The notes under the pieces were generated by a model. It did no database searches and was not told the DNA's origin. It saw only the letters and a program-made list of their open reading frames with translations. From a virus, in IMG/VR virus record IMGVR_UViG_3300035542_000019: a stretch of 53,550 nt of DNA, one strand, 5' to 3'. Below are positions 17,891 to 28,350 of the stretch, piece after piece. A program made the translations under genes and the position numbers. How positions within the stretch are numbered: position 1 is the first letter of the stretch; each line of letters opens with the position of its first letter.

Positions 17891-18274
17891 GTGGATAGGA
17901 ACAAGGCGAAGGAATTTATTAGACGGTACAGCGCATGGTTCGAAGAAACGGTAGACGAACTGGAACGCGTCTATACCCTGGACAGCGACCAGGCCTACGA
18001 AGAAGCGATTAAGATTATGAAAAAGAACCACCTGTACGGGAATAAATTCAAGACCAGCGAGGAAATGGACCTACTGGCCCTTTGGTTCGCACAGCTGGCG
18101 CAGAAAACGACCTGGCGGGTAACGACGACCTTTTACAACAGCGGCCGGGTAACCGCAGCCTTTTACAGAGCAGGCGACGAACCCGGGGACTTCGGAAACT
18201 GCGACGTATACGTGGATAGCTTCAAGACAAAGCTAGAAGCGCTTTACTTCATCGACGACGCGAAGAACGCGTAA
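17891..18274 (+). CDS. Hypothetical early protein (127 aa, GTG start)
   Basis: GTG immediately after the previous TAA, with SD aaaaggggg upstream. Confidence 0.6.
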   Translation: MDRNKAKEFIRRYSAWFEETVDELERVYTLDSDQAYEEAIKIMKKNHLYGNKFKTSEEMDLLALWFAQLAQKTTWRVTTTFYNSGRVTAAFYRAGDEPGDFGNCDVYVDSFKTKLEALYFIDDAKNA

Positions 18275-18286
18275 GGGGGCTATACT

Positions 18287-18538
18287 ATGAACTTCAAGGA
18301 ATACCTGGAAACCTGTACGACGCCAAGCTTTAACGACCACCTACAGGCAGAGGGTAGGCCGACCCAAAAGGCTTACCTAGAGAAGTCGGTAAAAGAGCGC
18401 ATGGTAAAATACGCCAAGGCTAAGGGGCTGCACAGGCTGGAAGGCGACTTAAAGGCCATGGCTGCACTTACCAGCTTTATATACTTTAACGTCATATGCC
18501 GGGGCGAGGACCTGGCCGAAGAAAGGAAGGGGGCTTAA
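18287..18538 (+). CDS. Hypothetical early protein (83 aa)
   Basis: SD taaggggg 7 nt upstream. Confidence 0.6.
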   Translation: MNFKEYLETCTTPSFNDHLQAEGRPTQKAYLEKSVKERMVKYAKAKGLHRLEGDLKAMAALTSFIYFNVICRGEDLAEERKGA

Positions 18539-18540
18539 TA

Positions 18541-18885
18541 ATGAACGAAGAATACTACGACCAGCTTATGACGTATATAGCGGCAGATATAGCGGACTGT
18601 AGGGACCGCTATAAAAGCCTACAGGCTACTAAGGACGCCTGGGACGACCGCTTTAACCCTACGTCTAAGACCAGCGGCCTAACGCTGGAAGAAATGACGG
18701 ACTTACAGCAGCACTTAGTAACGCGGCAGCATAAACTTTTTATACAATGGTACCATATGAACGAAAAGCTTAGGCGGGAAGGGAAAAGCCATTACTTACC
18801 GCAGAAGGTAAGGGACGTAGGCGGGGCGCTGCTTCATGTAACTAGATATATGGACGTAATAGAAAACGAAAGGAAGGGGCTTTAA
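18541..18885 (+). CDS. Hypothetical early protein, tandem paralogue A (114 aa)
   Basis: ATG with SD aaggaaggggg. The track start at 18496 lacks an SD. About 55 percent identical by hand alignment to the next ORF. Confidence 0.65.
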   Translation: MNEEYYDQLMTYIAADIADCRDRYKSLQATKDAWDDRFNPTSKTSGLTLEEMTDLQQHLVTRQHKLFIQWYHMNEKLRREGKSHYLPQKVRDVGGALLHVTRYMDVIENERKGL

Positions 18886-19224
18886 ATGCGTGACAGTTAT
18901 TACAGCCAGCTAATGACCTATATAGCCCTGGATATTGAAGAACTACGACAGCGTTACGACAGGCTACAGCGTACCCTAGAATACTGGGACGACCGCTTTA
19001 GCCCTACTTCAAAGACCAGCGGCCTAAGTCTTGAAGAAATAGCAGACCTAAAGGCTAGCATTGAAAGCCGGCAGCATGACCTTTTTATACAGTGGTACGA
19101 AATGAACGAGAAGGCAAGGCTTGAAGGCAGACCCTTCTACCTTGCCGGAAAGGTAAGAGAACTAGGCGGCTATCTAATTAACGTAGCGAGTTATAAGGAC
19201 CTGCTAACAGAAAGGAAGGGGTAG
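18886..19224 (+). CDS. Hypothetical early protein, tandem paralogue B (112 aa)
   Basis: Shares YY.QLMTYIA.DI...R.RY..LQ.T...WDDRF.PTSKTSGL.LEE..DL.....RQH.LFIQWY.MNEK.R.EG..YL..KVR..GG with 18541-18885. Confidence 0.65.
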   Translation: MRDSYYSQLMTYIALDIEELRQRYDRLQRTLEYWDDRFSPTSKTSGLSLEEIADLKASIESRQHDLFIQWYEMNEKARLEGRPFYLAGKVRELGGYLINVASYKDLLTERKG

Positions 19225-19226
19225 TA

Positions 19227-19697
19227 ATGCACAAGATTTTAATAGGCTATTACCAGCTGGAAAAGGAAATGGAATTCGTGGACAACTGCTACGAGTGCGC
19301 GGCGTGGAATCAGACGATAAGGGTACCGGCAGGAAGGTACCCACTGTATGCACTAGGCTACCAGTACAACGAACGCGAAAGGCACTATACGAAGCAGGTA
19401 ACAGACAGCAGCGTATTTATCGAAATGCAGGGCGAGGTAGTGGCCGACGACTTTAGGGGTCGCTACTTCGGTGGTATCATAAACGGCAGCCAGCTTAACC
19501 AGCGCGTAGGGGTTACAGATATATACAGGGTGAACTTTTACGCCCACAGCCTGGCCGAGAAGCTGCTATACGGTACCGACCCGCTGCCAGGGGTAGAAGG
19601 AAAGCTGGAACTTTTACCGGAATTCGAAGCGGTGGCCCTGCCTTTTACGTACCAAGGCCAGGAACTTAAAACTTATGGAATCTTTAGAAAGGGGTAG
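19227..19697 (+). CDS. Hypothetical early protein (156 aa)
   Basis: SD aaaggaagggg upstream. No motif recognised. Confidence 0.6.
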   Translation: MHKILIGYYQLEKEMEFVDNCYECAAWNQTIRVPAGRYPLYALGYQYNERERHYTKQVTDSSVFIEMQGEVVADDFRGRYFGGIINGSQLNQRVGVTDIYRVNFYAHSLAEKLLYGTDPLPGVEGKLELLPEFEAVALPFTYQGQELKTYGIFRKG

Positions 19698-19701
19698 AAT
19701 C

Positions 19702-19950
19702 ATGGCAAAAGGAAAAAGCACAGGGGTAGAATTAGTAGCGTATAACTCTAAGATTAGCCAGGACCTTAAGGATACGCTGGAAGCACTGGTAGACGTGCTA
19801 AAGGAAGAAGGCGTAAGCGGACAGCGCGAACTACTGGAAAGAATGGTAGACGCGTACCGCCAGGCTAGGCCCGACGTATTCGAGCAGGCCGAGAAGCTGG
19901 TAGCGCTTAAGCACGAAGCCCGTAACATCGTGTACCGTAAGGACAAGTAA
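19702..19950 (+). CDS. Hypothetical early protein (82 aa)
   Basis: ATG with SD gaaagggg 7 nt upstream (internal to track ORF 19675..19950), followed by a terminator. Confidence 0.55.
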   Translation: MAKGKSTGVELVAYNSKISQDLKDTLEALVDVLKEEGVSGQRELLERMVDAYRQARPDVFEQAEKLVALKHEARNIVYRKDK

Positions 19951-19956
19951 ACAAGC

Positions 19957-19984
19957 GGGACCCGTAAAAGGGTCCTATTTTTTC
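19957..19984 (+). terminator. Rho-independent terminator closing the early orphan cluster
   Basis: ggaccc / gggtcc stem with gtaaaa loop, followed by tatttttt. Confidence 0.75.
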
Positions 19985-20011
19985 ACCCTTTTAGGTATAA
20001 AAAGGCGAATT

Positions 20012-20069
20012 TAAGAATATACTAATAAGTTATTGACGTATGGAAAATAAAGCACTATAATAGAAAATA
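20012..20069 (+). promoter_or_regulatory. Consensus SigA promoter, copy 1 of a duplicated promoter cassette
   Basis: TTGACG (20033-20038), 17-nt spacer, TATAAT (20056-20061). The flanks taagaatatactaataagttattgac and tataatagaaaata are identical to the cassette at 29158-29215. Confidence 0.8.
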
Positions 20070-20116
20070 AGCCCGCGTAGTGCGGGATAATGGAAGAAGA
20101 AAGGGGGCGCTAAACA

Positions 20117-20242
20117 GTGAAACAAACGACGGTTTTCGTATTAAAAGGCACTATCGACGACGTGGTAAAGCAGCTTAGAAGCATGACGGAAGCGGACTTC
20201 GAGGAAATGAAACAGAAAGCTTTAAGAAGAAAGGGGGCCTAG
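20117..20242 (+). CDS. Small hypothetical protein (41 aa, GTG start)
   Basis: SD aaaggggg 8 nt upstream of the GTG. Its stop overlaps the SD of the next gene. Not in the track (<60 aa). Confidence 0.4.
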   Translation: MKQTTVFVLKGTIDDVVKQLRSMTEADFEEMKQKALRRKGA

Positions 20243-20245
20243 ACG

Positions 20246-21682
20246 ATGGCGAAAATAGCTTACGTAAAAGCCTGGGGTTTATGGTCCCACTTCGAAACGG
20301 TTTTCGAGTTTAGCCCAGGCCTAACCGTGGTAACGGGGCCAAACGGCAGCGGTAAAAGTACGCTGATACGTATTATAAAATGGGTAGCCCAAGGCGAACC
20401 CAGCGGGGAAAGTTTTATTTTTAAAGTGGAAAACGACGCCGGCGAAACGGTGAAGCAGGCGGACGAGGGTAAGGCGGAAATCGGCCTGGATAACGGGGTA
20501 GTCATTACCAAGACCAGGCGGAAAGGAAAAACCACCTATACCATTAACACGGTGGCCGAACCCTTCGAGAAGGCCGAGGTACCCCAGGAAGTAAAGGAAG
20601 CCCTGGGTATTGATAAGTACAGCTTCGGGGACTTCGAAAGCTACCTTAACTACGCCTTCCAGCTGGAAGCGCCCTTCCTGCTAAGCGAAAGCCCAAGCGT
20701 AGGGGCTAAGGTACTGGGTAAGCTTGCCGGTACCGAAGCGGTGGACCTGGCTATTAGAGAAGTAGCGAAAAGGACCCACAAGACCAGGGAAGAAAAGCGA
20801 CTAGCAGACAAAGAGGTAGAACGTATTAACGGCGACCTTTTGGACTACCAGGACCTGGACGACCTTAAGCAGCAGCTTACAGCCTGCGAGTACCTGGTAG
20901 AGCAGCTGGACCAGGCGGTAGCGAGAAAAACAGACCTGGCCGCCATGGATAACACTTTTAGGCTGGCCGTGGACAAGTACGGCGAACTGGCCGAGCAGCT
21001 ACAGCACTATATGGTACTGGGCGAACTGGAAGCGGATATGGAAAACGTGGAAACCGCCCAGCGTCGCTACGATATGCTGCTGGACCTTTACGGGCAAGTA
21101 GACAGCGCGGTAAATACCATCGCGGACCTGGGGCAGCAGCTTAGCGAGTACCGGGAAGTCGAAAGCGCCGGCCTGCTTCTTACCGAAACAGAAAAGCGGG
21201 CAGCAAGACTTACGAACCTAAAGGACTTATCCACAGAGTTATCAACATATACACAGCGCATTGACGCGGCGCGCGGATACCTGGACACGGTAAAGGACCT
21301 AGACGTAGCCGCTTCGAATATGCAGTACGTCGAGAAAACAACGGAAAAGCTGGAAGCCCTAAAGACACTTCGCGGGGCCTACACTACAGCCGATACCGAA
21401 AGAAAACGCCTTACCGAGAACCTGGAAGCCTTAAAGGGTACCCAGGAAGCCGCGGAACTCTTTAGCGTGGTAGACGACAAGCTGGTAAGGCTGAACAGCC
21501 TAAAGGCCCTTAGCGACGAGGTACAAAGTAAAACGGGCCTGGCGGAAAGCTACAAGGACGACGTAAGGAAGGCCGGGGAAGCATACCTGGCAGCCGAAAA
21601 CGAACTGGCCGCAGCGTGGGAAGCAGCCGGCGGGACCTGCCCGTTATGTAATCAACCGGTAAGCGGCGACCACGCGCATTAG
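20246..21682 (+). CDS. Rad50/SbcC-type ATPase, N-terminal piece (Walker A head, coiled coil, terminal CxxC hook)
   Basis: FSPGLTVVTGPNGSGKST Walker A, then ~350 aa of heptad-rich sequence. Ends GGTCPLCNQPVSGDHAH with the CxxC at 21638-21649. Confidence 0.75.
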   Translation: MAKIAYVKAWGLWSHFETVFEFSPGLTVVTGPNGSGKSTLIRIIKWVAQGEPSGESFIFKVENDAGETVKQADEGKAEIGLDNGVVITKTRRKGKTTYTINTVAEPFEKAEVPQEVKEALGIDKYSFGDFESYLNYAFQLEAPFLLSESPSVGAKVLGKLAGTEAVDLAIREVAKRTHKTREEKRLADKEVERINGDLLDYQDLDDLKQQLTACEYLVEQLDQAVARKTDLAAMDNTFRLAVDKYGELAEQLQHYMVLGELEADMENVETAQRRYDMLLDLYGQVDSAVNTIADLGQQLSEYREVESAGLLLTETEKRAARLTNLKDLSTELSTYTQRIDAARGYLDTVKDLDVAASNMQYVEKTTEKLEALKTLRGAYTTADTERKRLTENLEALKGTQEAAELFSVVDDKLVRLNSLKALSDEVQSKTGLAESYKDDVRKAGEAYLAAENELAAAWEAAGGTCPLCNQPVSGDHAH

Positions 21683-21698
21683 AAAGGGGGCGCGGGCC

Positions 21699-22373
21699 AT
21701 GAATAACACGTACGGAACGCTAGAAGATGGTAGGGTACAGATTTTACTAACCAGGAAGAACGGGAACCCACAGGAAGCCGTCGTAATTGACGCCGAGGAC
21801 CTGCCTAGACTGCTGGCCTTTAAAGGCCACTTCTACCCGTTTACCCACCAAAAGACGGGCAAGGTATACGCCAGGGGGTACTACAAGGACCCCGAAACCG
21901 GAAAGGTGCAGCAGCCATTACTACATAGGCTAATCGCGGACCCTTCCAAGGGACAGAACACGGCGCACGTAAACGGTAATACCCTGGACTGTACCCGCGA
22001 GAACCTGCGGAACTTGTCCATAGGTAAGAATATCGAGGACGTGTTAAGGGAAGAAAAGACCTTCACGGACGGCCTTAAAGAGGTTAAGCGCAGCGGGGAT
22101 ATCGCAGCAGAAAAGGAACTGGAAGAACTGGCGACGGTGGACCCGGATACGCTTAACGATAAGCTGGACAAGCTTAAGGACCAGGGCCGGGTAGAAAAGG
22201 GCGTAAGCTTCCACAAGCTAAAGCGGCGCTGGGAAGTAAGCGCCTTCCATAAGGGCAAGCGGCACCGGCTGGGGTACTGGCCGCCGGAAGAACTTAGAAA
22301 GGCAAACGAAGCGGTACTATTCTTTAGGCGAGAGGGTCCCAGGGCCTTTAACGCCGCTTATGAAAGGGGGTAA
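21699..22373 (+). CDS. HNH-AP2 homing-endonuclease-like protein
   Basis: LHRLIADPSKGQNTAHVNGNTLDCTRENLRNL is HNH_3-like. GVSFHKLKRRWEVSAFHKGKRHRLGYWPPEELRKANEA is an AP2 DNA-binding motif. Confidence 0.7.
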   Translation: MNNTYGTLEDGRVQILLTRKNGNPQEAVVIDAEDLPRLLAFKGHFYPFTHQKTGKVYARGYYKDPETGKVQQPLLHRLIADPSKGQNTAHVNGNTLDCTRENLRNLSIGKNIEDVLREEKTFTDGLKEVKRSGDIAAEKELEELATVDPDTLNDKLDKLKDQGRVEKGVSFHKLKRRWEVSAFHKGKRHRLGYWPPEELRKANEAVLFFRREGPRAFNAAYERG

Positions 22374-22377
22374 GTAA

Positions 22378-22650
22378 ATGGACGACAAGACCTTAAAGGA
22401 ACTTAGGGAAAAGGTAGACGCTGCCGAAACGCTGAAAAAGAAAATGGAAATGCTGGACGACGTGGTAGCCAGCTGTAACGCCGAGGTAGGTTTTTTAAGC
22501 GTGACGGTAAACTACAGGAATCAGAACGAAATCAGAATGGTAGACACGTTCCCGGCTAAAGAGTTATTCGAAGCATTTAAAGACGACCTTAAGGCCGCGG
22601 CACTAAAGCATAAGGAACAGCTGGAAAAACAGTACACGAATCTAAAATAG
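22378..22650 (+). CDS. Hypothetical protein (90 aa)
   Basis: SD gaaaggggg upstream, partly coiled coil. Confidence 0.6.
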   Translation: MDDKTLKELREKVDAAETLKKKMEMLDDVVASCNAEVGFLSVTVNYRNQNEIRMVDTFPAKELFEAFKDDLKAAALKHKEQLEKQYTNLK

Positions 22651-22663
22651 CGAAAGGGGTAAC

Positions 22664-23062
22664 ATGATGAAGAAAACAGTAACGGTAATTAAAACGAACA
22701 ACTTAAAAGAGGGCCTGGCGCAGGCTGCTAGGGATATCTACGAACAGACAGGCGAGCGCTACAGCGTGGAAGAACTTCTTACAGCTATCACAGAACACGA
22801 CGACGTAGAGGACAGCGTAGACGAGGGTCGCGAAGCCGTGGGTATTGCCGGGGCATACGCGAAGGCGCATATTAGGGCCTGCGATAACTTTATGGACCAC
22901 CTAAGAAACTGCGAAGCGTGCAGGGGTGACAAAGTAAGACGCGACCACGTGCTAAGAATGAGAGAAGCAGCCCAGGACCTAGAAAGAGCGCTAGAAGCTT
23001 TCGTATACGCCGAAGTAGCGCTGGAAAACTATATTACGATGGTTAAGAAGGGGGTAAACTAA
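22664..23062 (+). CDS. Hypothetical protein (132 aa) with CxxC-x8-H motif followed by helical segment
   Basis: SD gaaagggg. Contains HLRNCEACRGDKVRRDH followed by LRMREAAQDLERALEAF. Confidence 0.6.
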   Translation: MMKKTVTVIKTNNLKEGLAQAARDIYEQTGERYSVEELLTAITEHDDVEDSVDEGREAVGIAGAYAKAHIRACDNFMDHLRNCEACRGDKVRRDHVLRMREAAQDLERALEAFVYAEVALENYITMVKKGVN

Positions 23063-23296
23063 ATGGATATTAAGAACCGTATCGAAATCGCGAAAATGAA
23101 CCTCAAGAAGGCCGAAAACCAAAAGACGATTAAGGAAACCCAGCTAGCAGCTGCCGAGAAGCAGCGCGACGAAGTGGTAGAGAAGATGGCAAAAGAAGGG
23201 GTAACACCGGAAACCGTGGGCCAGGAAGTAGAGAAGCTGGAAAGCGAAATCACGGAGAACCTAACGAAAATCGAAAACTTACTACCGAGAGTATAA
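23063..23296 (+). CDS. Coiled-coil protein (77 aa)
   Basis: SD agaaggggg. Heptad-rich, Lys/Glu-rich throughout. Confidence 0.6.
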   Translation: MDIKNRIEIAKMNLKKAENQKTIKETQLAAAEKQRDEVVEKMAKEGVTPETVGQEVEKLESEITENLTKIENLLPRV

Positions 23297-23308
23297 GGGG
23301 GTATCGAA

Positions 23309-24040
23309 ATGGGACTACAGGACCTTTTTAACAAGGGGCCGGGAAACGGCCTAGACAGGCCCACAGTCGCGGGCAGCACCCCCAGCCATACCGCAGGTAC
23401 CTACCATATCAACAAAGCGAAAATGGACGTAAAGACGGCCGCCAGGAAGGTAGCCGCGAAAGAGGGGCAGCGCGACCTACTGCTTAAGCAAAGGGCCGAA
23501 GCTGAAAAGAGGGGCGAAGCTGCCGAAAGACAGCTGGACGTATTCGATAAGGTGCTTATCCTTCTACAGCTTACCAGCGACTACGCTAGGCAGCAGATTA
23601 AGGGACGGATAGAGGAACTGGTAAGCCAGGCCCTTAACATCGTATACGGCGGCAGCCATACCTTTACCATTGACCTGGTGGTACGCAGCAACAGGCCGGA
23701 AGCCGACTACTGGCTTAACGAAAATGGGGTAGTAACCCAGCTGGTTAAGCCGGACTACGATAACGGCGGCGGGAAGATTGACGTAATCAGTCTTACCCTT
23801 CGCCTGGCCGTGGACGAACTGGTAGGCGACCAGGGGCCGTTATTCCTGGACGAAGTGGGTAAACACGTGGACGGCGAAGCAGCGGTTAACCTGGCCTACT
23901 TCCTTAAGCAGTACGCCGAGAAATTCGACAGGCAGATAACCCTTATAACCCATAACACCACGCTAGGCGAGATAGGCGACGTAAGCTACAGGGTTACGAA
24001 GGTAAATAACGAAGCCGTGATTAAGGGGGTAGAGGTATGA
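23309..24040 (+). CDS. Rad50/SbcC-type ATPase, C-terminal piece (signature, Walker B, D-loop, H-loop)
   Basis: Coiled-coil N-terminus, then DNGGGKIDVISLTLRLAV (signature-like), GPLFLDEVG (Walker B/D-loop) and ITLITHN (H-loop). Confidence 0.7.
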   Translation: MGLQDLFNKGPGNGLDRPTVAGSTPSHTAGTYHINKAKMDVKTAARKVAAKEGQRDLLLKQRAEAEKRGEAAERQLDVFDKVLILLQLTSDYARQQIKGRIEELVSQALNIVYGGSHTFTIDLVVRSNRPEADYWLNENGVVTQLVKPDYDNGGGKIDVISLTLRLAVDELVGDQGPLFLDEVGKHVDGEAAVNLAYFLKQYAEKFDRQITLITHNTTLGEIGDVSYRVTKVNNEAVIKGVEV

Positions 24041-24291
24041 AGGAAGTAAAAGGCGGACACCTAGAACCCTTTAAGCTTATGCCGGCTAAGCCTGGAAAGT
24101 GCCAGGTATGCGCTGTAGAACATGACCCGGCGCAGCCGCATAACAAGCGAAGCTTATTTTATCAATATGCCTTCTTTAACGAGTACGGACGCTGGCCTAC
24201 ATGGGCGGACGCCATGGAACACTGCGACGACGAGGTAAAGAGGGTATGGAAAGAAGCACTTGAAAAAATGGGGGTGGCCTTAATTGATTAG
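24037..24291 (+). CDS. Small Cys/His protein (84 aa)
   Basis: ATGA overlap with the upstream gene. Contains GKCQVCAVEHDPAQPH. Confidence 0.6.
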   Translation: MKEVKGGHLEPFKLMPAKPGKCQVCAVEHDPAQPHNKRSLFYQYAFFNEYGRWPTWADAMEHCDDEVKRVWKEALEKMGVALID

Positions 24292-25252
24292 ACTACTATA
24301 TACCGGGGACTGGCACATAAGAGGGACGAACCCCAGGAACCGACTAGACGACTACAAAACAGCGCTTAAAGAAAAGCTGCGCGAGATATTCGAAATTGCG
24401 ACGAAGTGGGACGCCAAGGCGATTATAGCCCCTGGCGACATATTCGACAGGCCCGAGGTAACCATAAGCGTACTGCTGGAATTCGTGACGGTCCTTAGAG
24501 AAGCGCCGGTAACCATCTACACGACACCGGGGAACCATGACCTTTACGGCTACAACGTGGAAACCTTCCAACGAAGCAGCCTTAAACTGCTGGAAATGCT
24601 GGTACCGAAACTACAGGTAATCACAGACCCCACAGAGGTAGTAACCTTCGACGGCAGCACAGCCCTAAGCTTTACGCCCTACAGCGGTAAAATGGACCTT
24701 AACGGGTACGGGTATAGCCCCGAATACGAAGGGCTGGACGATATGTATAAGATTCACGTAGCCCATGGTATGCTGCTGGACCATACGCCGCCCTTCGACA
24801 AGTTTACCTATATCCAGGACGTACAGACCAGGGCGGATATGGTGCTTACCGGCCACGACCATACAGGCTACGGCGTCTATAACCGAAAAGACGGTAAAGT
24901 ATTCTGTAACCCAGGCGCCCTTACCAGGCTGGCGGCTTCGGTAAAGGAAATGCAGCGCCAGGTACAGGTAGGCCTTATTACGGTAGACGGGAAGGAAGCG
25001 AAGGTAGAACTTATAGCACTTAATACAGCCAAGCCCGGCGAAGAAGTCCTGGACCGCAGCAGGATAGAAGCCGAGAAAGAAAGACAGTACGCCATGGATA
25101 CCTTTAGCGCACTTATGAAGGCAAAGACCGGCGACGCGGTGCTTATGGACGTTAACCAAATCGTCGAAACCATCGCCAAGCAGCAGGAAACGGCGCCGCA
25201 TATCGTAAAGGCAGCTATCGAACTTATCGACGAGCAAAGGGCCGTACTATGA
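24284..25252 (+). CDS. sbcD: Mre11/SbcD-type nuclease (calcineurin-like phosphoesterase)
   Basis: Motifs in canonical order: YTGDWHIRG, APGDIFD, TPGNHD, HVAHG, LTGHDHTG. TTG start with SD atggggg. Confidence 0.85.
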   Translation: MIRLLYTGDWHIRGTNPRNRLDDYKTALKEKLREIFEIATKWDAKAIIAPGDIFDRPEVTISVLLEFVTVLREAPVTIYTTPGNHDLYGYNVETFQRSSLKLLEMLVPKLQVITDPTEVVTFDGSTALSFTPYSGKMDLNGYGYSPEYEGLDDMYKIHVAHGMLLDHTPPFDKFTYIQDVQTRADMVLTGHDHTGYGVYNRKDGKVFCNPGALTRLAASVKEMQRQVQVGLITVDGKEAKVELIALNTAKPGEEVLDRSRIEAEKERQYAMDTFSALMKAKTGDAVLMDVNQIVETIAKQQETAPHIVKAAIELIDEQRAVL

Positions 25253-25491
25253 ATGGGGTAAACGTCAAGCTAATGGTATGGACCTGCGGCAACTGCGGAC
25301 ACGAAGAACCAATACCTAAAGACGGCAGCGTAGGCGGCCTGGTATTCGAGAAGTACAGCCGGTTCACAAGTAAGCTAGGCTGCCCGGCCTGCGGCAGCTA
25401 CACGTTACAGCAGGCTACAGACGGCAGCTTTACGGTGGGCCACTTCCTAATCGTAAAGACGAAAAACAGGATACAAGGAAAGGGGCGTTAA
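25249..25491 (+). CDS. Zinc-ribbon protein (80 aa)
   Basis: CGNCGH ... CPACGS, two CxxC pairs. ATGA overlap with sbcD. Confidence 0.6.
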   Translation: MNGVNVKLMVWTCGNCGHEEPIPKDGSVGGLVFEKYSRFTSKLGCPACGSYTLQQATDGSFTVGHFLIVKTKNRIQGKGR

Positions 25492-25492
25492 C

Positions 25493-25564
25493 ATGGACTT
25501 TAACGAAAAAGACTTCGAAGAAGTCACAGACGGCGACGTAACCATCGAATTTTTAAGCAAATAG
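25493..25564 (+). CDS. Possible 23-aa acidic peptide (MDFNEKDFEEVTDGDVTIEFLSK)
   Basis: ATG 2 nt after the previous stop, with ggaaagggg 8 nt upstream. Very short, so weak. Confidence 0.25.
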   Translation: MDFNEKDFEEVTDGDVTIEFLSK

Positions 25565-25578
25565 AAAGGGGTAGAATT

Positions 25579-26139
25579 ATGGAAAACGTGAAAATGGAAC
25601 TTGAAAAAATGGTAGAAGCATACGGGGCCGACGAGGTAAGAAAGGCCATCGAAAACCTTATGGGAAGGGTAAGCAAGCCTGTACCGGCCGAGCATATCCA
25701 GGTACTTAGCCCTAAGAGAATCGAGGACACGGTAGCGCAGCTGGACAGCGCGGTAAGCGAAGTCCTGGCAGCAGGCGACGCCCTGGACGCTGCTTACAAG
25801 AACCGCGGGGAACTGCTTAGCAGAAAAGCCCAGCTGGAAGGCGAAATTAAGCTGGAAGAAGCCCAGGCCATTATGGAGATTAGGGGCGAAGCTAGAAGCC
25901 AGTACATTATGGTAGGCGACGAAAAGGTACTACTGACTAACGACACGGCCAGGGACGCTTACCGAAGAATGGCAAGCAAGACCCAGCGCGAAGAACTGGC
26001 GGGCGTGGAAGCGCAGCTGGCGAAGCTTGACGCTGAAATCGAGCAGGCAAAGGAAAAGCGTAATACGGTAAAGGAAGCTAACGACAGTATCAGAGCCAAG
26101 GGACACGTACAGGCTGCCTTACTGAATTACCTAAGGTAG
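25579..26139 (+). CDS. Hypothetical coiled-coil protein (186 aa)
   Basis: SD gaaagggg. Long heptad regions. No catalytic motif recognised. Confidence 0.6.
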   Translation: MENVKMELEKMVEAYGADEVRKAIENLMGRVSKPVPAEHIQVLSPKRIEDTVAQLDSAVSEVLAAGDALDAAYKNRGELLSRKAQLEGEIKLEEAQAIMEIRGEARSQYIMVGDEKVLLTNDTARDAYRRMASKTQREELAGVEAQLAKLDAEIEQAKEKRNTVKEANDSIRAKGHVQAALLNYLR

Positions 26140-26146
26140 GCCGCCT

Positions 26147-26680
26147 ATGAAGAACAAAAGCATAACGCCGCACAGCCTAAGCAGCCGGGACCTGCAAAGG
26201 GAACGGCAGCGGCGCGGCGAGGACTTCCAGGCGGAAATACGTAGAAGCTGGCGGCTAGTACCTAACTGCTGGCGTATGCGGATAGCCGACGGACGGGGCG
26301 GAAGCCGACCGGCCGACGAAATCACACTACTAGAAGAAATAAACGTACTGGCGGAACTAAAGAGGACCCAGGGCAGCAGCTTTAAGCTGAACATGTTAAG
26401 GCCAAACCAAATACAGGGGCTTATCGACTTCGACGAAGTGATAAGCAGGAACTACGGGCTAGTATTCGTAAGCTTCCTAGACGAAAAAAAGGACCTGGAC
26501 GAAGCCTACGCTTTTCGGCTTATTACAGCGCTTAAGCATATGAAGAAGAAAGGCGCTGTTAACGTCAAGCTGGAAGAACTACGAAAGGGAAAGCTTCCGG
26601 CTGTACGGCTTCCTCTTTTGGACCGCGCAGAACGTACTTACGACCTAAAGGGGGTAGTCGAGTGCTACAAATCACTTTAA
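26147..26680 (+). CDS. PD-(D/E)xK Holliday-junction-resolvase-like nuclease (Hjc/RecU-like)
   Basis: RGEDFQAEI ... SRPADEITLL ... VLAELKRTQGSSFKL..LRPNQIQGL follows the G..FE ... D ... E.K ... Q pattern of Hjc/RecU-type resolvases. Confidence 0.5.
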   Translation: MKNKSITPHSLSSRDLQRERQRRGEDFQAEIRRSWRLVPNCWRMRIADGRGGSRPADEITLLEEINVLAELKRTQGSSFKLNMLRPNQIQGLIDFDEVISRNYGLVFVSFLDEKKDLDEAYAFRLITALKHMKKKGAVNVKLEELRKGKLPAVRLPLLDRAERTYDLKGVVECYKSL

Positions 26681-28350
26681 AAAACAATATTCGAATACGC
26701 GGGGCGGGTACGCCGCTTAGGGCAGAGGTAACGAAGGCCCTTACGGTGGACAACCCCGAAGCCGCAAGGCGAAAGAAACAGGGGCGGACGACCTGGGGCG
26801 TAGAAGAAAAGCTTAAGCTTTACCTTTACGACCGTGGCGACCTAATCGTACCCCGGGGCTTTTCAAAGGACCTGGAAGCGATTCTAAAGGCCCAGGGGGT
26901 AAACCCGGCCAAGGTTATTACCGTCGTACAGAACGAAGGGCAGCCGGTGGACTTCGGGCCATGGAACGAGGACTACAAGCTTAAGAAGGACCAGGCGCCT
27001 ATGGTTAAGGCCCTGGTAGCAGAGAACGGCGTAGGGGTAGCGCCTGCCGGCAGCGGTAAAACGATTATGGGTATGCGCTATATCTACGAGGTAGGAAGGC
27101 CTACCCTATGGCTTACCCACACGAAAGACCTTATGTACCAAAGTAAAGAGCGAGCCGAAGCCACGCTTAAAGGCGTAGGCCAGGTAGGGCTACTAGGCGA
27201 CGGTAAAACCGAATGGGGAAGCGGTAAGCTGATTATCGCGACCGTGCAGACCATACAGCAGAACCCGCAGCTTATCGAAGCCCTGGACCAGTTTATAGGC
27301 GTCGTCATTATCGACGAAGCCCACCACTTCCCGGCGCCGCAGTTTATCGACGTGGCGGCAAAGTTTAGCGCGGCCCGTATCCTGGGACTTACGGCGACGC
27401 CAGACAGAAAAGACCAGCTGCAAATCTATATGTATATGGGAATCGGGCCTAAGCTTTACGAGATTAGCAGGGACGGGCTGTACGACAGCGGGCGCCTGGT
27501 TAAGCCGGAACTTCGCTTTATCTATACGAAATTCGACTACGAGCAGGCCAGCGACAGACAGGGCAGTAACGTAGACGCCGGCGGCGAGGACCTGGACTAC
27601 GTGGACCTTATGAACACGCTTATAAACGACGAGGACAGGGCGCAGCTTTTGGCCCATCATATCCTAGACGCTGCACCCCTGGGGGCTAGTATTGTAATCG
27701 CGGAGAGCGTAAGGTACTGCTTTACCCTTAGGGACGCCGTAGCAGCCCTAGCAAAGCGTAAATGGGGCGTCGTACCGCGCCAGGCGGTCGTACACGGGGG
27801 CTTAAGCCGTTACAGCTGGAAGGTGGCGGGCAACGAAGCCCAGGCCCAGGCCATGGTAAGAGCAGGCGAAGCCCTGGAATACAAGTACGATAAGCGAGCA
27901 AGACGCTTTAAGGTAAAGGTACCGCAGTATACCGAAGCCGAGTTTAACGACTGGCAGGTAACGAATAAGCAGCGTAAGGCAATCCTGGACGACGTACGAG
28001 AAGGCCGCGTAGATATCCTATACGCTACGCAGCTGGCCCGTGAAGGCCTGGATATTAGCCACTTAACCGTAGGGCATATGGCGACGCCTAAACGGGGCGA
28101 CACCGGCAACAGCCGAAGCGGTGCAGCGGTCGAGCAGGAAATAGGCCGAATCATGCGCCCGGACCCTGGAAACCCGGATAAAAGGGCAGTATGGTACGAC
28201 TACGTGGACTATGAGGTAGGCGTACTTAAGTCGCAATACCACAGCCGTAGAAAGACCTATAGGCGCCTGGACCTTATCGTACCGAACAAACCACCGAGAA
28301 GCGCCGAAGCTGACCTTATCGACAGCTTCCTAGGGGGTAGTATTATCTAA
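26662..28350 (+). CDS. Superfamily 2 DEAH helicase
   Basis: APAGSGKT (Walker A), IIDEAHHF (DEAH), LGLTATP (motif III), QEIGRIMR (motif VI-like). GTG start with SD aaaggggg. Confidence 0.8.
   Translation: MLQITLKNNIRIRGAGTPLRAEVTKALTVDNPEAARRKKQGRTTWGVEEKLKLYLYDRGDLIVPRGFSKDLEAILKAQGVNPAKVITVVQNEGQPVDFGPWNEDYKLKKDQAPMVKALVAENGVGVAPAGSGKTIMGMRYIYEVGRPTLWLTHTKDLMYQSKERAEATLKGVGQVGLLGDGKTEWGSGKLIIATVQTIQQNPQLIEALDQFIGVVIIDEAHHFPAPQFIDVAAKFSAARILGLTATPDRKDQLQIYMYMGIGPKLYEISRDGLYDSGRLVKPELRFIYTKFDYEQASDRQGSNVDAGGEDLDYVDLMNTLINDEDRAQLLAHHILDAAPLGASIVIAESVRYCFTLRDAVAALAKRKWGVVPRQAVVHGGLSRYSWKVAGNEAQAQAMVRAGEALEYKYDKRARRFKVKVPQYTEAEFNDWQVTNKQRKAILDDVREGRVDILYATQLAREGLDISHLTVGHMATPKRGDTGNSRSGAAVEQEIGRIMRPDPGNPDKRAVWYDYVDYEVGVLKSQYHSRRKTYRRLDLIVPNKPPRSAEADLIDSFLGGSII

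Follow-up and report, generated by a model that had tools for sequence, protein, structure and literature searches.

The analysed stretch of DNA, IMG/VR virus record IMGVR_UViG_3300035542_000019 (53,550 nucleotides, here called the window), carries on its + strand a set of genes for a Rad50/SbcC-type ATPase that is divided over separate open reading frames (ORFs). The first of these, the N piece (20246..21682, 478 amino acids), encodes the Rad50/SbcC N-terminal lobe, a helical rod and a zinc hook, as read from the ORF map and from Pfam and PHROG matches. The C-terminal lobe is encoded by the C piece (23309..24040, 243 amino acids; phrog_15167 and AlphaFold2), which starts 1626 nucleotides past the end of the N piece and has the gene of the SbcD/Mre11 nuclease downstream of it (24284..25252, 322 amino acids; Pfam Metallophos and phrog_100). 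Between the two pieces lie an HNH-AP2-like ORF (21699..22373, 224 amino acids; phrog_99 and an alignment of homologues), a 90-amino-acid ORF (22378..22650) and a 132-amino-acid ORF containing NCEAC followed by a helix (22664..23062), the latter two taken from the ORF map. Directly upstream of the C piece stands E, a 77-amino-acid helix-turn-helix protein (23063..23296; phrog_18563). All of these genes are on the + strand, and the endonuclease-like gene and the three small ORFs were found where an earlier note on this DNA, made from the sequence alone, had placed them.

The N piece matched Pfam AAA_23 (1.6e-18) and, over its full length, phrog_16465 (4.5e-124; profile of 491 positions). Its Walker A P-loop GPNGSGKS (amino acids 31-38; 20336..20359, + strand) was read from the sequence, and G31, G36, K37 and the Q-loop Gln139 are invariant among the N pieces of alignment A1. 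The best PDB sequence matches were Pyrococcus furiosus Rad50, as the N-terminal fragment (chain A) in catalytic-domain constructs made of two chains, and Foldseek matches were confined to the N-terminal lobes (lobe I) of SMC/Rad50 proteins. The AlphaFold2 model (25 sequences) reached a predicted local distance difference test score (pLDDT) of 71.5 and a predicted template modelling score (pTM) of 0.31, a mediocre model that serves for secondary structure only and does not distinguish an extended rod from one folded back. It contains the strands of lobe I and helices at amino acids 164-200, 203-255, 259-348, 352-396 and 399-460, with helix breaks at 256-258, 349-351 and 397-398, and amino acids 136-168 are disordered when no partner is present. 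The distal rod consists of four tandem repeats of about 47 amino acids (amino acids 258-445; 21017..21580, + strand; boundaries read by eye), the copy number of which varies among relatives, as seen in insertions and deletions of 44-94 amino acids in alignment A1 and in the internal duplications of relatives P0008 and P0090.

The C piece matched phrog_15167 (2.6e-76; profile of 211 positions), and its matches to Pfam SMC_N (22.9 bits) and NCBIfam Rad50 were both under the curated cut-offs. It bears the signature, Walker B and H-loop that the earlier note had assigned to a separate downstream ORF. The signature-motif equivalent is GGG (amino acids 153-155; 23765..23773, + strand), which aligns to the Rad50 signature region and in which, by alignment A4, G154 is invariant and G153 and G155 nearly so. 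It is followed by Walker B LFLDE (amino acids 178-182; 23840..23854, + strand), in which D181 and E182 are invariant and next to which the D-loop region lies, and by the H-loop histidine H215 (23951..23953, + strand), with T214 and H215 nearly invariant. The AlphaFold2 model of the C piece (54 sequences; pLDDT 90.5, pTM 0.76) shows a disordered tail (amino acids 1-28), a single helix (29-113) and then ABC-ATPase lobe II. Its best Foldseek matches were the C-terminal chains 5h66_B, 1ii8_B, 3qkr_B, 9a9j_B and 1f2u_B, at target-normalised template modelling scores of at most 0.75, and the best PDB sequence matches were the P. furiosus Rad50 C-terminal fragments (B chains). In the engineered head constructs (1F2T/1F2U, 1II8, 3QKR, 5H66) the lobes are also on separate chains, which there form a functional head, chain A corresponding to the N piece and chain B to the C piece; those constructs are laboratory truncations without arms and hook, whereas the phage split is natural and the N chain keeps its arm and hook.

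The first 30 residues of the C piece (23309-23400) are a clade-specific extra, in which MGLxDLF is followed by a disordered linker of about 25 amino acids (pLDDT about 60). The same motif recurs in P0127, L021 and L025 and, in a looser form, in P0122 and L010, and it is absent from the 211-amino-acid forms of the group of phage phBC6A51. MGLxDLF may act as a docking peptide.

By its matches to Pfam Metallophos (4.6e-12) and phrog_100 (8.6e-27), SbcD belongs to the calcineurin-type phosphoesterases, with the NCBIfam sbcd and mre11 matches under their cut-offs. The locus shares with the canonical Rad50/SbcC-Mre11/SbcD systems (Escherichia coli SbcCD, T4 gp46/gp47, P. furiosus) the same lobe motifs, helical arms, a CxxC hook and an adjacent calcineurin-type nuclease.

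Related loci were collected by a profile-guided IMG/VR scan, which gave 80 loci in which every ORF was searched with the proteins of the window; in most of them SbcD was found in a syntenic position. By their matches, the N and C pieces make up the two halves of a single Rad50/SbcC-type ABC ATPase. Neither carries the full motif set by itself: Walker A and the Q-loop are on the one, and the signature, Walker B and H-loop on the other. That they are instead unrelated stand-alone proteins which form no common ATPase could be read from their placement in separate PHROG families and from their independent annotation as 'exonuclease' and 'ATPase'. Besides the incomplete motif sets, this is contradicted by their co-occurrence in 56 of 56 loci, usually with SbcD, by the broad congruence of the N-piece and C-piece trees, and by the mapping of the two profiles to the two ends of unsplit Rad50, so that we give it hardly any credence.

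The position of the break can be read from the N-terminal half. The CPLC zinc-hook motif (amino acids 465-468; 21638..21649, + strand; sequence and alignment A1) is followed only by NQPVSGDHAH and the stop. The terminal CxxC and Walker A had been recognised correctly before, and the distance from the second Cys to the end of the chain, earlier counted as 12 residues, is 10. By its CxxC the motif is a predicted zinc hook, and W458, C465, P466 and C468 are invariant in this region of alignment A1. Across 54 loci the N-piece C-terminus lies 0-17 amino acids past the CxxC. When aligned to unsplit Rad50 (archaeal proteins of 766-774 amino acids and viral proteins of 538-767 amino acids), the N-piece profile ends on the central hook; the archaeal references are distant Rad50 genes that were the sole matches from a contig scan with the lone N-piece sequence. 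The C-piece profile covers the last ~200 residues of unsplit Rad50, and the piece starts about 60-85 helical residues before lobe II. Because the one profile ends on the central hook and the other covers these last ~200 residues, the chain break lies just past the coiled-coil apex, immediately after the hook CxxC, which bears out the break at the zinc hook proposed before. Canonical Rad50 is one polypeptide with a central hook, from which the arm returns; in the phage family the chain ends 0-17 amino acids after the hook, lobe II and a returning helix of about 60-85 amino acids are separate, a protein of about 80 amino acids is added, and the rod of 121-347 amino acids has no counterpart of equal length among the other pieces. 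In all 56 loci, other polypeptides carry lobe II and the returning helix, at odds with the single hairpin polypeptide by which Rad50 is defined.

The residues around the hook differ between clades in alignment A1. In the clade of the window, CPLC is followed by a second ligand pair, [H/C]x[H/C] (HxH, CxH, or H...C), and in the outer clades CPxCG is followed by a short amphipathic tail, xxKLxEVI. Judged from these motifs, the zinc site may differ between the clades.

The same division was found throughout the relatives. Among the 120 N-piece relatives listed, lobe II is absent from every one: 118 have 430-533 amino acids, one is a 336-amino-acid fragment and one is a 571-amino-acid protein with an internal duplication. 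An additional chimera of 657 amino acids has an unrelated tail. All full-length N-piece relatives that were aligned or inspected end at the motif W-EAAGG-x-CPLC (CPxC), and the named hosts include Paenibacillus, the Bacillus cereus group, Sutcliffiella, Lysinibacillus, Neobacillus and Lachnospiraceae. Searched exhaustively with HMMER, 1.84 billion representative proteins gave 1913 relatives of the C piece (492 at E <= 1e-10), the best 150 of which all have 90-296 amino acids. N and C are separate genes in 56 of the 56 loci that hold both. The earlier note had named as a refuting outcome that the two ORFs prove to be independent families never occurring fused. Taken literally this is what was observed, and it refutes a recent insertion; it spares the idea of one enzyme, because the N and C families always co-occur in one operon.

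Two gene orders were observed. In type-1 loci the order is N, optional inserts, E, C and SbcD. In type-2 loci it is N (297-460 amino acids), SbcD, an E-like small ORF and C (about 200 amino acids), so that the nuclease gene stands between the Rad50 halves; the same order is seen in Mvi-JY20, an isolated cyanophage. No endonuclease is present in the more distant type-1 loci L030-L033, where N, E, C and SbcD follow one another directly or with 4-nucleotide overlaps, and L034, which has gaps of a few to about 375 nucleotides between these genes, lacks an HNH gene as well. The isolated phage vB_BboS-125 encodes a 471-amino-acid 'exonuclease', an AP2 protein, a 78-amino-acid ORF and a 211-amino-acid 'ATPase'. 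The isolated phage phBC6A51 encodes, with no HNH gene, a 518-amino-acid SbcC, a 100-amino-acid ORF, a 77-amino-acid ORF, a 211-amino-acid ATPase, one more ORF and SbcD. In phage 0305phi8-36 (L003, 3987-8023), gp8 is an SbcD-N-piece fusion (769 amino acids), gp7 is E-like, gp6 is an unrelated protein of 238 amino acids and gp5 is the C piece. In Microbacterium phage Magritte (L089, L091), gene 2 at the left end encodes the C piece, and the E-like gene 245 follows the 'nuclease' gene 244 near the right end. The module appears to be divided over the two ends of the linear record, and the N piece was not located.

Yoshida et al. 2011 (PMC3175470) listed gp8 of 0305phi8-36 as an Mre11/Rad50 fusion without one nucleoside triphosphatase (NTPase) segment. 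Among the Mre11-Rad50 fusions (Mimivirus R555 and others; PMC3175470), this gp8 belongs to the present family, and its 'missing' segment is the separate gp5, three genes downstream, with the E-like gp7 between; the SbcD of the window, by comparison, is unfused. N, C and E are already held as three separate PHROG families. The claim that a Rad50 split at the hook would be new stands in so far as no description of a split Rad50/SbcC was found in the open-access full-text literature; it does not stand for the sequences, since members had been sequenced in phBC6A51 and 0305phi8-36. The family is widespread and often sequenced, as in these two phages, and has apparently gone unrecognised.

The HNH-AP2-like gene begins 17 nucleotides past the N-piece stop codon, and the split had been attributed to its insertion. 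Its family assignment is less strongly supported than those of the other genes: the ORF matched phrog_99 (1.6e-9), with Pfam HNH_3 only at E 0.04, under the threshold, and with no match to Pfam AP2 at E <= 0.1. In alignment A3 of nine syntenic homologues, H76 and N102 are invariant and the second motif position is H, W or F. The C-terminal block GVSFHK..RW......GKRH.LGY aligns with the syntenic gp33 of vB_BboS-125, which is annotated as an AP2 domain protein. In neighbour-joining trees the gene occurs across an inner clade, of which only the phBC6A51 group lacks it; neither the outer clade nor any type-2 locus has it. In its branching the HNH tree broadly agrees with those of the N and C pieces, the homologues are 28-51% identical, and no paralogue of the gene was found within the window.

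A recent insertion of the HNH-AP2 gene with its accompanying ORFs into an intact Rad50 gene would explain how closely it follows the N-piece stop. It would also have precedents, as an HNH gene lies between the halves of Aeh1 nrdA (mobE), of T4 gene 39/60 (mobA) and of the split gene 43 of Aeromonas phages, as here (PMC2988022), all of them essential genes of DNA metabolism whose products have to reassemble, and relatives of the HNH N-terminal domain occur in other phage contexts, which speaks for a family that is mobile in general. In those endonuclease-split genes, close relatives are uninterrupted (PMC2988022), whereas no such relative of the phage Rad50 was found among the 120 N-piece relatives listed, the best 150 of 1913 C-piece relatives or the 56 loci. 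Loci free of the HNH gene are split at the same point (phBC6A51-type, L030-L034, L042 and all type-2 loci), so that every relative found is split with or without the gene, and the gene is restricted to the inner clade, where it has diverged with its neighbours to 28-51% identity. The proposal of a recent endonuclease-caused split is refuted by the split loci without an HNH gene, and we regard such an origin as very improbable. Because the HNH gene is confined to the inner clade, it entered an already split gene and is no part of the ancestral module. The simplest reading of the gene distribution is one HNH acquisition into an already split locus, followed by long residence and one loss.

A rejoining of the pieces through a group I intron, a split intein, ribosomal bypassing or read-through would leave Rad50 in one chain. 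HNH ORFs are common in group I introns, and E and the C piece (23063-24040) share a reading frame, with one TAA and four codons between them. This shared frame is probably a coincidence, because the annotated coordinates of phBC6A51 put E and C in different frames. Rfam gave no match at E <= 1 in 20000-25500, and therefore no intron is indicated there. In the split-intein fractured genes of Dassa et al. 2009 (PMC2677866) an endonuclease ORF lies between the halves, as here; here no intein motifs are present at the junctions, and therefore no protein trans-splicing is expected. No Hint/intein domain was found, and an N-intein could not fit into the 10 amino acids after the hook. The ORFs are closely packed, each with a Shine-Dalgarno sequence and a start codon of its own, and in type-2 loci the pieces are separated by an entire nuclease gene. 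Rejoining of the chains is accordingly scarcely to be expected.

The earlier note had allowed for a Rad50 reassembled from three to five polypeptides; of the small ORFs, at least the 77-amino-acid E belongs to the system. E matched phrog_18563 over its full length (7.3e-31; profile of 77 positions). With jackhmmer it was found in 27 of 27 type-1 loci, each time next to the C piece on its upstream side, usually with a gap of 10-16 nucleotides and with a 4-nucleotide overlap in four, and the translation of E is often coupled to that of the C piece. In type-2 loci an ORF of 75-95 amino acids takes the place of E in at least 25 of 28 cases, with the same design, in which two helices flank a G-[V/C]-[T/S]-x-E-E turn. 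The type-1 and type-2 E profiles matched each other in hhalign with a probability of 95.8% (E 6.8e-9, 83 columns), compared with less than 4% for other small ORFs used as controls. The close homologues of E are 77-78 amino acids long in 20 of 20 cases and 58-99% identical. On shared contigs E is 58-81% identical versus 35-62% for the N piece (for example, 73% versus 62%, and 58% versus 35%). In P0215 (279 amino acids) an apparent natural E-C fusion was seen by eye. Judged by this conservation, E is a real, constrained and conserved third component.

The 90-amino-acid and 132-amino-acid ORFs, by comparison, occur in the closest relatives only. The former has no family match in Pfam, PHROG or NCBIfam, one significant homologue, in L010, and a look-alike in L013 (by eye); that it belongs to the family of the phBC6A51-type ORF of 98-101 amino acids was considered and is unsupported (hhalign probability 14%). 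The 132-amino-acid ORF has no significant match in the same three databases, and its C-terminal half resembles only the 92-amino-acid ORF of L010 (blastp 7e-6). From this distribution both are, on sequence grounds, lineage-specific cargo that came into the gap between N and E later, and not parts of the machine.

The genes of the region 18000-27000 form an uninterrupted series on the + strand of the ORF map. A terminator-like hairpin followed by a T run (19957..19976, + strand), which would close the upstream transcription unit, was found by a consensus scan as a pattern match only. It is followed by a sigma-70-like promoter, TTGACG-17-TATAAT (20033..20061, + strand), a pattern match with 11 of 12 positions and the sole promoter-like site of the consensus scan within 19500-26500. 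The same scan showed no + strand terminator-like site from this promoter to 26500. With a single promoter and no internal terminator, the gene set from N to SbcD therefore reads as one operon, and the operon holding all pieces likely starts at the predicted promoter. Each ORF of the locus is preceded by a Shine-Dalgarno sequence of the AAAGGGGG type. A chance ORF pattern is excluded, because each ORF has such a site and the arrangement recurs in dozens of related loci.

Both halves of the ATPase are intact and conserved, always occur together and, in the window, belong to one transcription unit. Taken together, we consider it highly probable that the operon of this Bacillota phage encodes a Mre11/Rad50-type machine for DNA-end processing, that its Rad50 is always made as separate polypeptides with E as a third subunit, and that the split is ancestral to a large phage family. 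In such a machine, lobes I and II would dock non-covalently, by analogy with Rad50 catalytic domains engineered as two chains. For P. furiosus Rad50, N- and C-terminal fragments that are expressed separately come together as an active catalytic domain (PDB 1F2T, 1F2U, 1II8, 3QKR). The N-piece rod would pair through its first helix with the long C-piece helix (about 85 amino acids) in an antiparallel coiled-coil base, and SbcD would supply the nuclease. With less certainty, E would extend the returning strand beside the C piece, two N pieces might be zinc-joined at their tips through the terminal CxxC, and the part of the N rod not covered by E and C would pair with itself or with a second N piece; the last step is suggested because the rod varies in length while E and C are constant. 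We infer that the rod is linear and self-pairing rather than a zig-zag bundle, an arrangement favoured because the length varies by single repeat units.

A more specific form of the proposal, which we hold only tentatively, is a three-chain Rad50 in which the covalent turn at the hook is dispensable. Two N rods, made of the 47-amino-acid repeats, self-paired and variable in length, would be zinc-tied at their C-termini, and E and the C-piece helix would clamp the head-proximal part of the arm only.

Several points weigh against the proposed machine. The physical association of N, E and C is something that we infer. The E profiles gave only scattered insignificant coiled-coil matches to the returning arm of unsplit Rad50. 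Across the loci, the rod ranges from 121 to 347 amino acids, E from 75 to 108 and the C piece from about 190 to 245, with a correlation of r = -0.20, and about 150 amino acids of the rod in the window have no obvious partner strand. In addition, [H/C]x[H/C] and CPLC together offer four possible ligands, which by the motifs could form a zinc site within a single chain rather than a hook between two chains. These points are to be set beside the observation that the shortest rods (121-135 amino acids) are about as long as E (about 80 amino acids) and the free part of the C-piece helix (about 45-65 amino acids) combined.

E may alternatively be an accessory or regulatory subunit, such as an adaptor between SbcD and Rad50 or a factor that recruits a DNA end or a partner, with the Rad50 itself made of two chains. 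The two helices of E are joined by a conserved tight turn, G-V-T-P-E-T (N-cap box), that resembles a hairpin more than an unbroken arm, its length is independent of that of the rod, and its profiles lack a significant match in unsplit Rad50 arms. E is also kept in 0305phi8-36, with its SbcD-N-piece fusion. A part in the arm is supported, however, by the tight and often translational coupling of E to C in both gene orders, by the apparent E-C fusion, and by the arm length that E and the C-piece helix make up in the shortest members. A further point against an accessory E is that SbcD has a C-terminal helical region of its own of about 65 amino acids (read by eye), which could be its Rad50-binding domain. 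We regard an accessory E as a serious alternative, though less probable than not.

The origin of the split can also be viewed differently. An ancient mobile endonuclease, or another rearrangement, may have cut a one-piece Rad50 at the hook, the original element having since disappeared from most lineages and the present HNH gene being a secondary occupant. Since the N and C profiles are colinear on unsplit Rad50, a one-piece ancestor is plausible, and a seg endonuclease may similarly have invaded the already split gene 43 (PMC2988022). The gap has repeatedly gained genes, namely the HNH-AP2 gene, assorted small ORFs and, in L025 (4528-6301) and L029 (1238-2177), a C5 DNA methyltransferase located between the N piece and the HNH gene (recognised by eye from an N-terminal FxGxG-type motif), which in L025 is broken into several ORFs; from the methyltransferase inserts, the gap after the N piece therefore seems to collect foreign genes. 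The outer clades, however, keep no trace of such an element, and the nuclease gene between the pieces of type-2 loci points to a rearrangement of the operon and not to homing. An ancient cut of this kind appears unlikely to us.

As a whole, the window looks like a phage genome that is close to complete and has nearly all its genes on one strand. Over the part compared, it is 99% identical to IMG/VR UViG_3300035548_000031. A megablast of the 5-kilobase region against isolated phages gave no match, and the relatives among them were found at the protein level only.

Between the C piece and SbcD lies an 84-amino-acid Cys/His-rich ORF (24037..24291, + strand; ORF map) with the pattern CQVC...H...H...C, for which one homologue was detected, downstream of SbcD in L032 (1.7e-26). 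Just upstream of the Rad50 operon, the ORFs 18496-18885 (129 amino acids) and 18886-19224 (112 amino acids) are clear paralogues that form a tandem duplication and share YYxQLMTYIAxDI...WDDRFxPTSKTSGLxLEE...LFIQWYxMNEK. In addition, many successive ORFs in 18287-23062 terminate in -RKG, -RKGA, -RKGL, -ERG or -KKGVN. These unrelated proteins have the same C-terminal tail because the strong Shine-Dalgarno sequence of the next gene (GAAAGGGG) sits in the last codons of the preceding gene.

Annotation pipelines label the pieces as 'exonuclease', 'chromosome segregation ATPase' or 'hypothetical protein'. Surveys of viral Mre11-Rad50 can therefore miscount such phages as having an incomplete or solo protein, as happened with 0305phi8-36 (PMC3175470). 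The locus is also a clean case of a homing-endonuclease-type gene that settled in a pre-existing gap, and it advises caution before the resident gene is blamed for a split.

Beyond annotation, the family bears on how Rad50 works. Rad50 is usually explained as a continuous polypeptide, the coiled coil of which runs from the head to the zinc hook and back, passing on conformational changes and closing a ring round DNA, and the importance of arm length, hook dimerisation and arm continuity is still debated from engineered truncations. A natural family that is cut right after the hook, with the return strand and lobe II elsewhere and a rod that varies about threefold in length, is an evolutionary experiment on arm continuity. 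If the three-chain reading is true, it would be a natural dissection of those functions that depend on continuity, namely ring closure, signalling from hook to head, and tethering of DNA ends. Their small size puts the proteins of the family within reach of biochemistry and cryo-electron microscopy. A natural break at the hook together with a conserved subunit of about 80 amino acids would surprise Rad50 specialists and would be useful to them for experiments.

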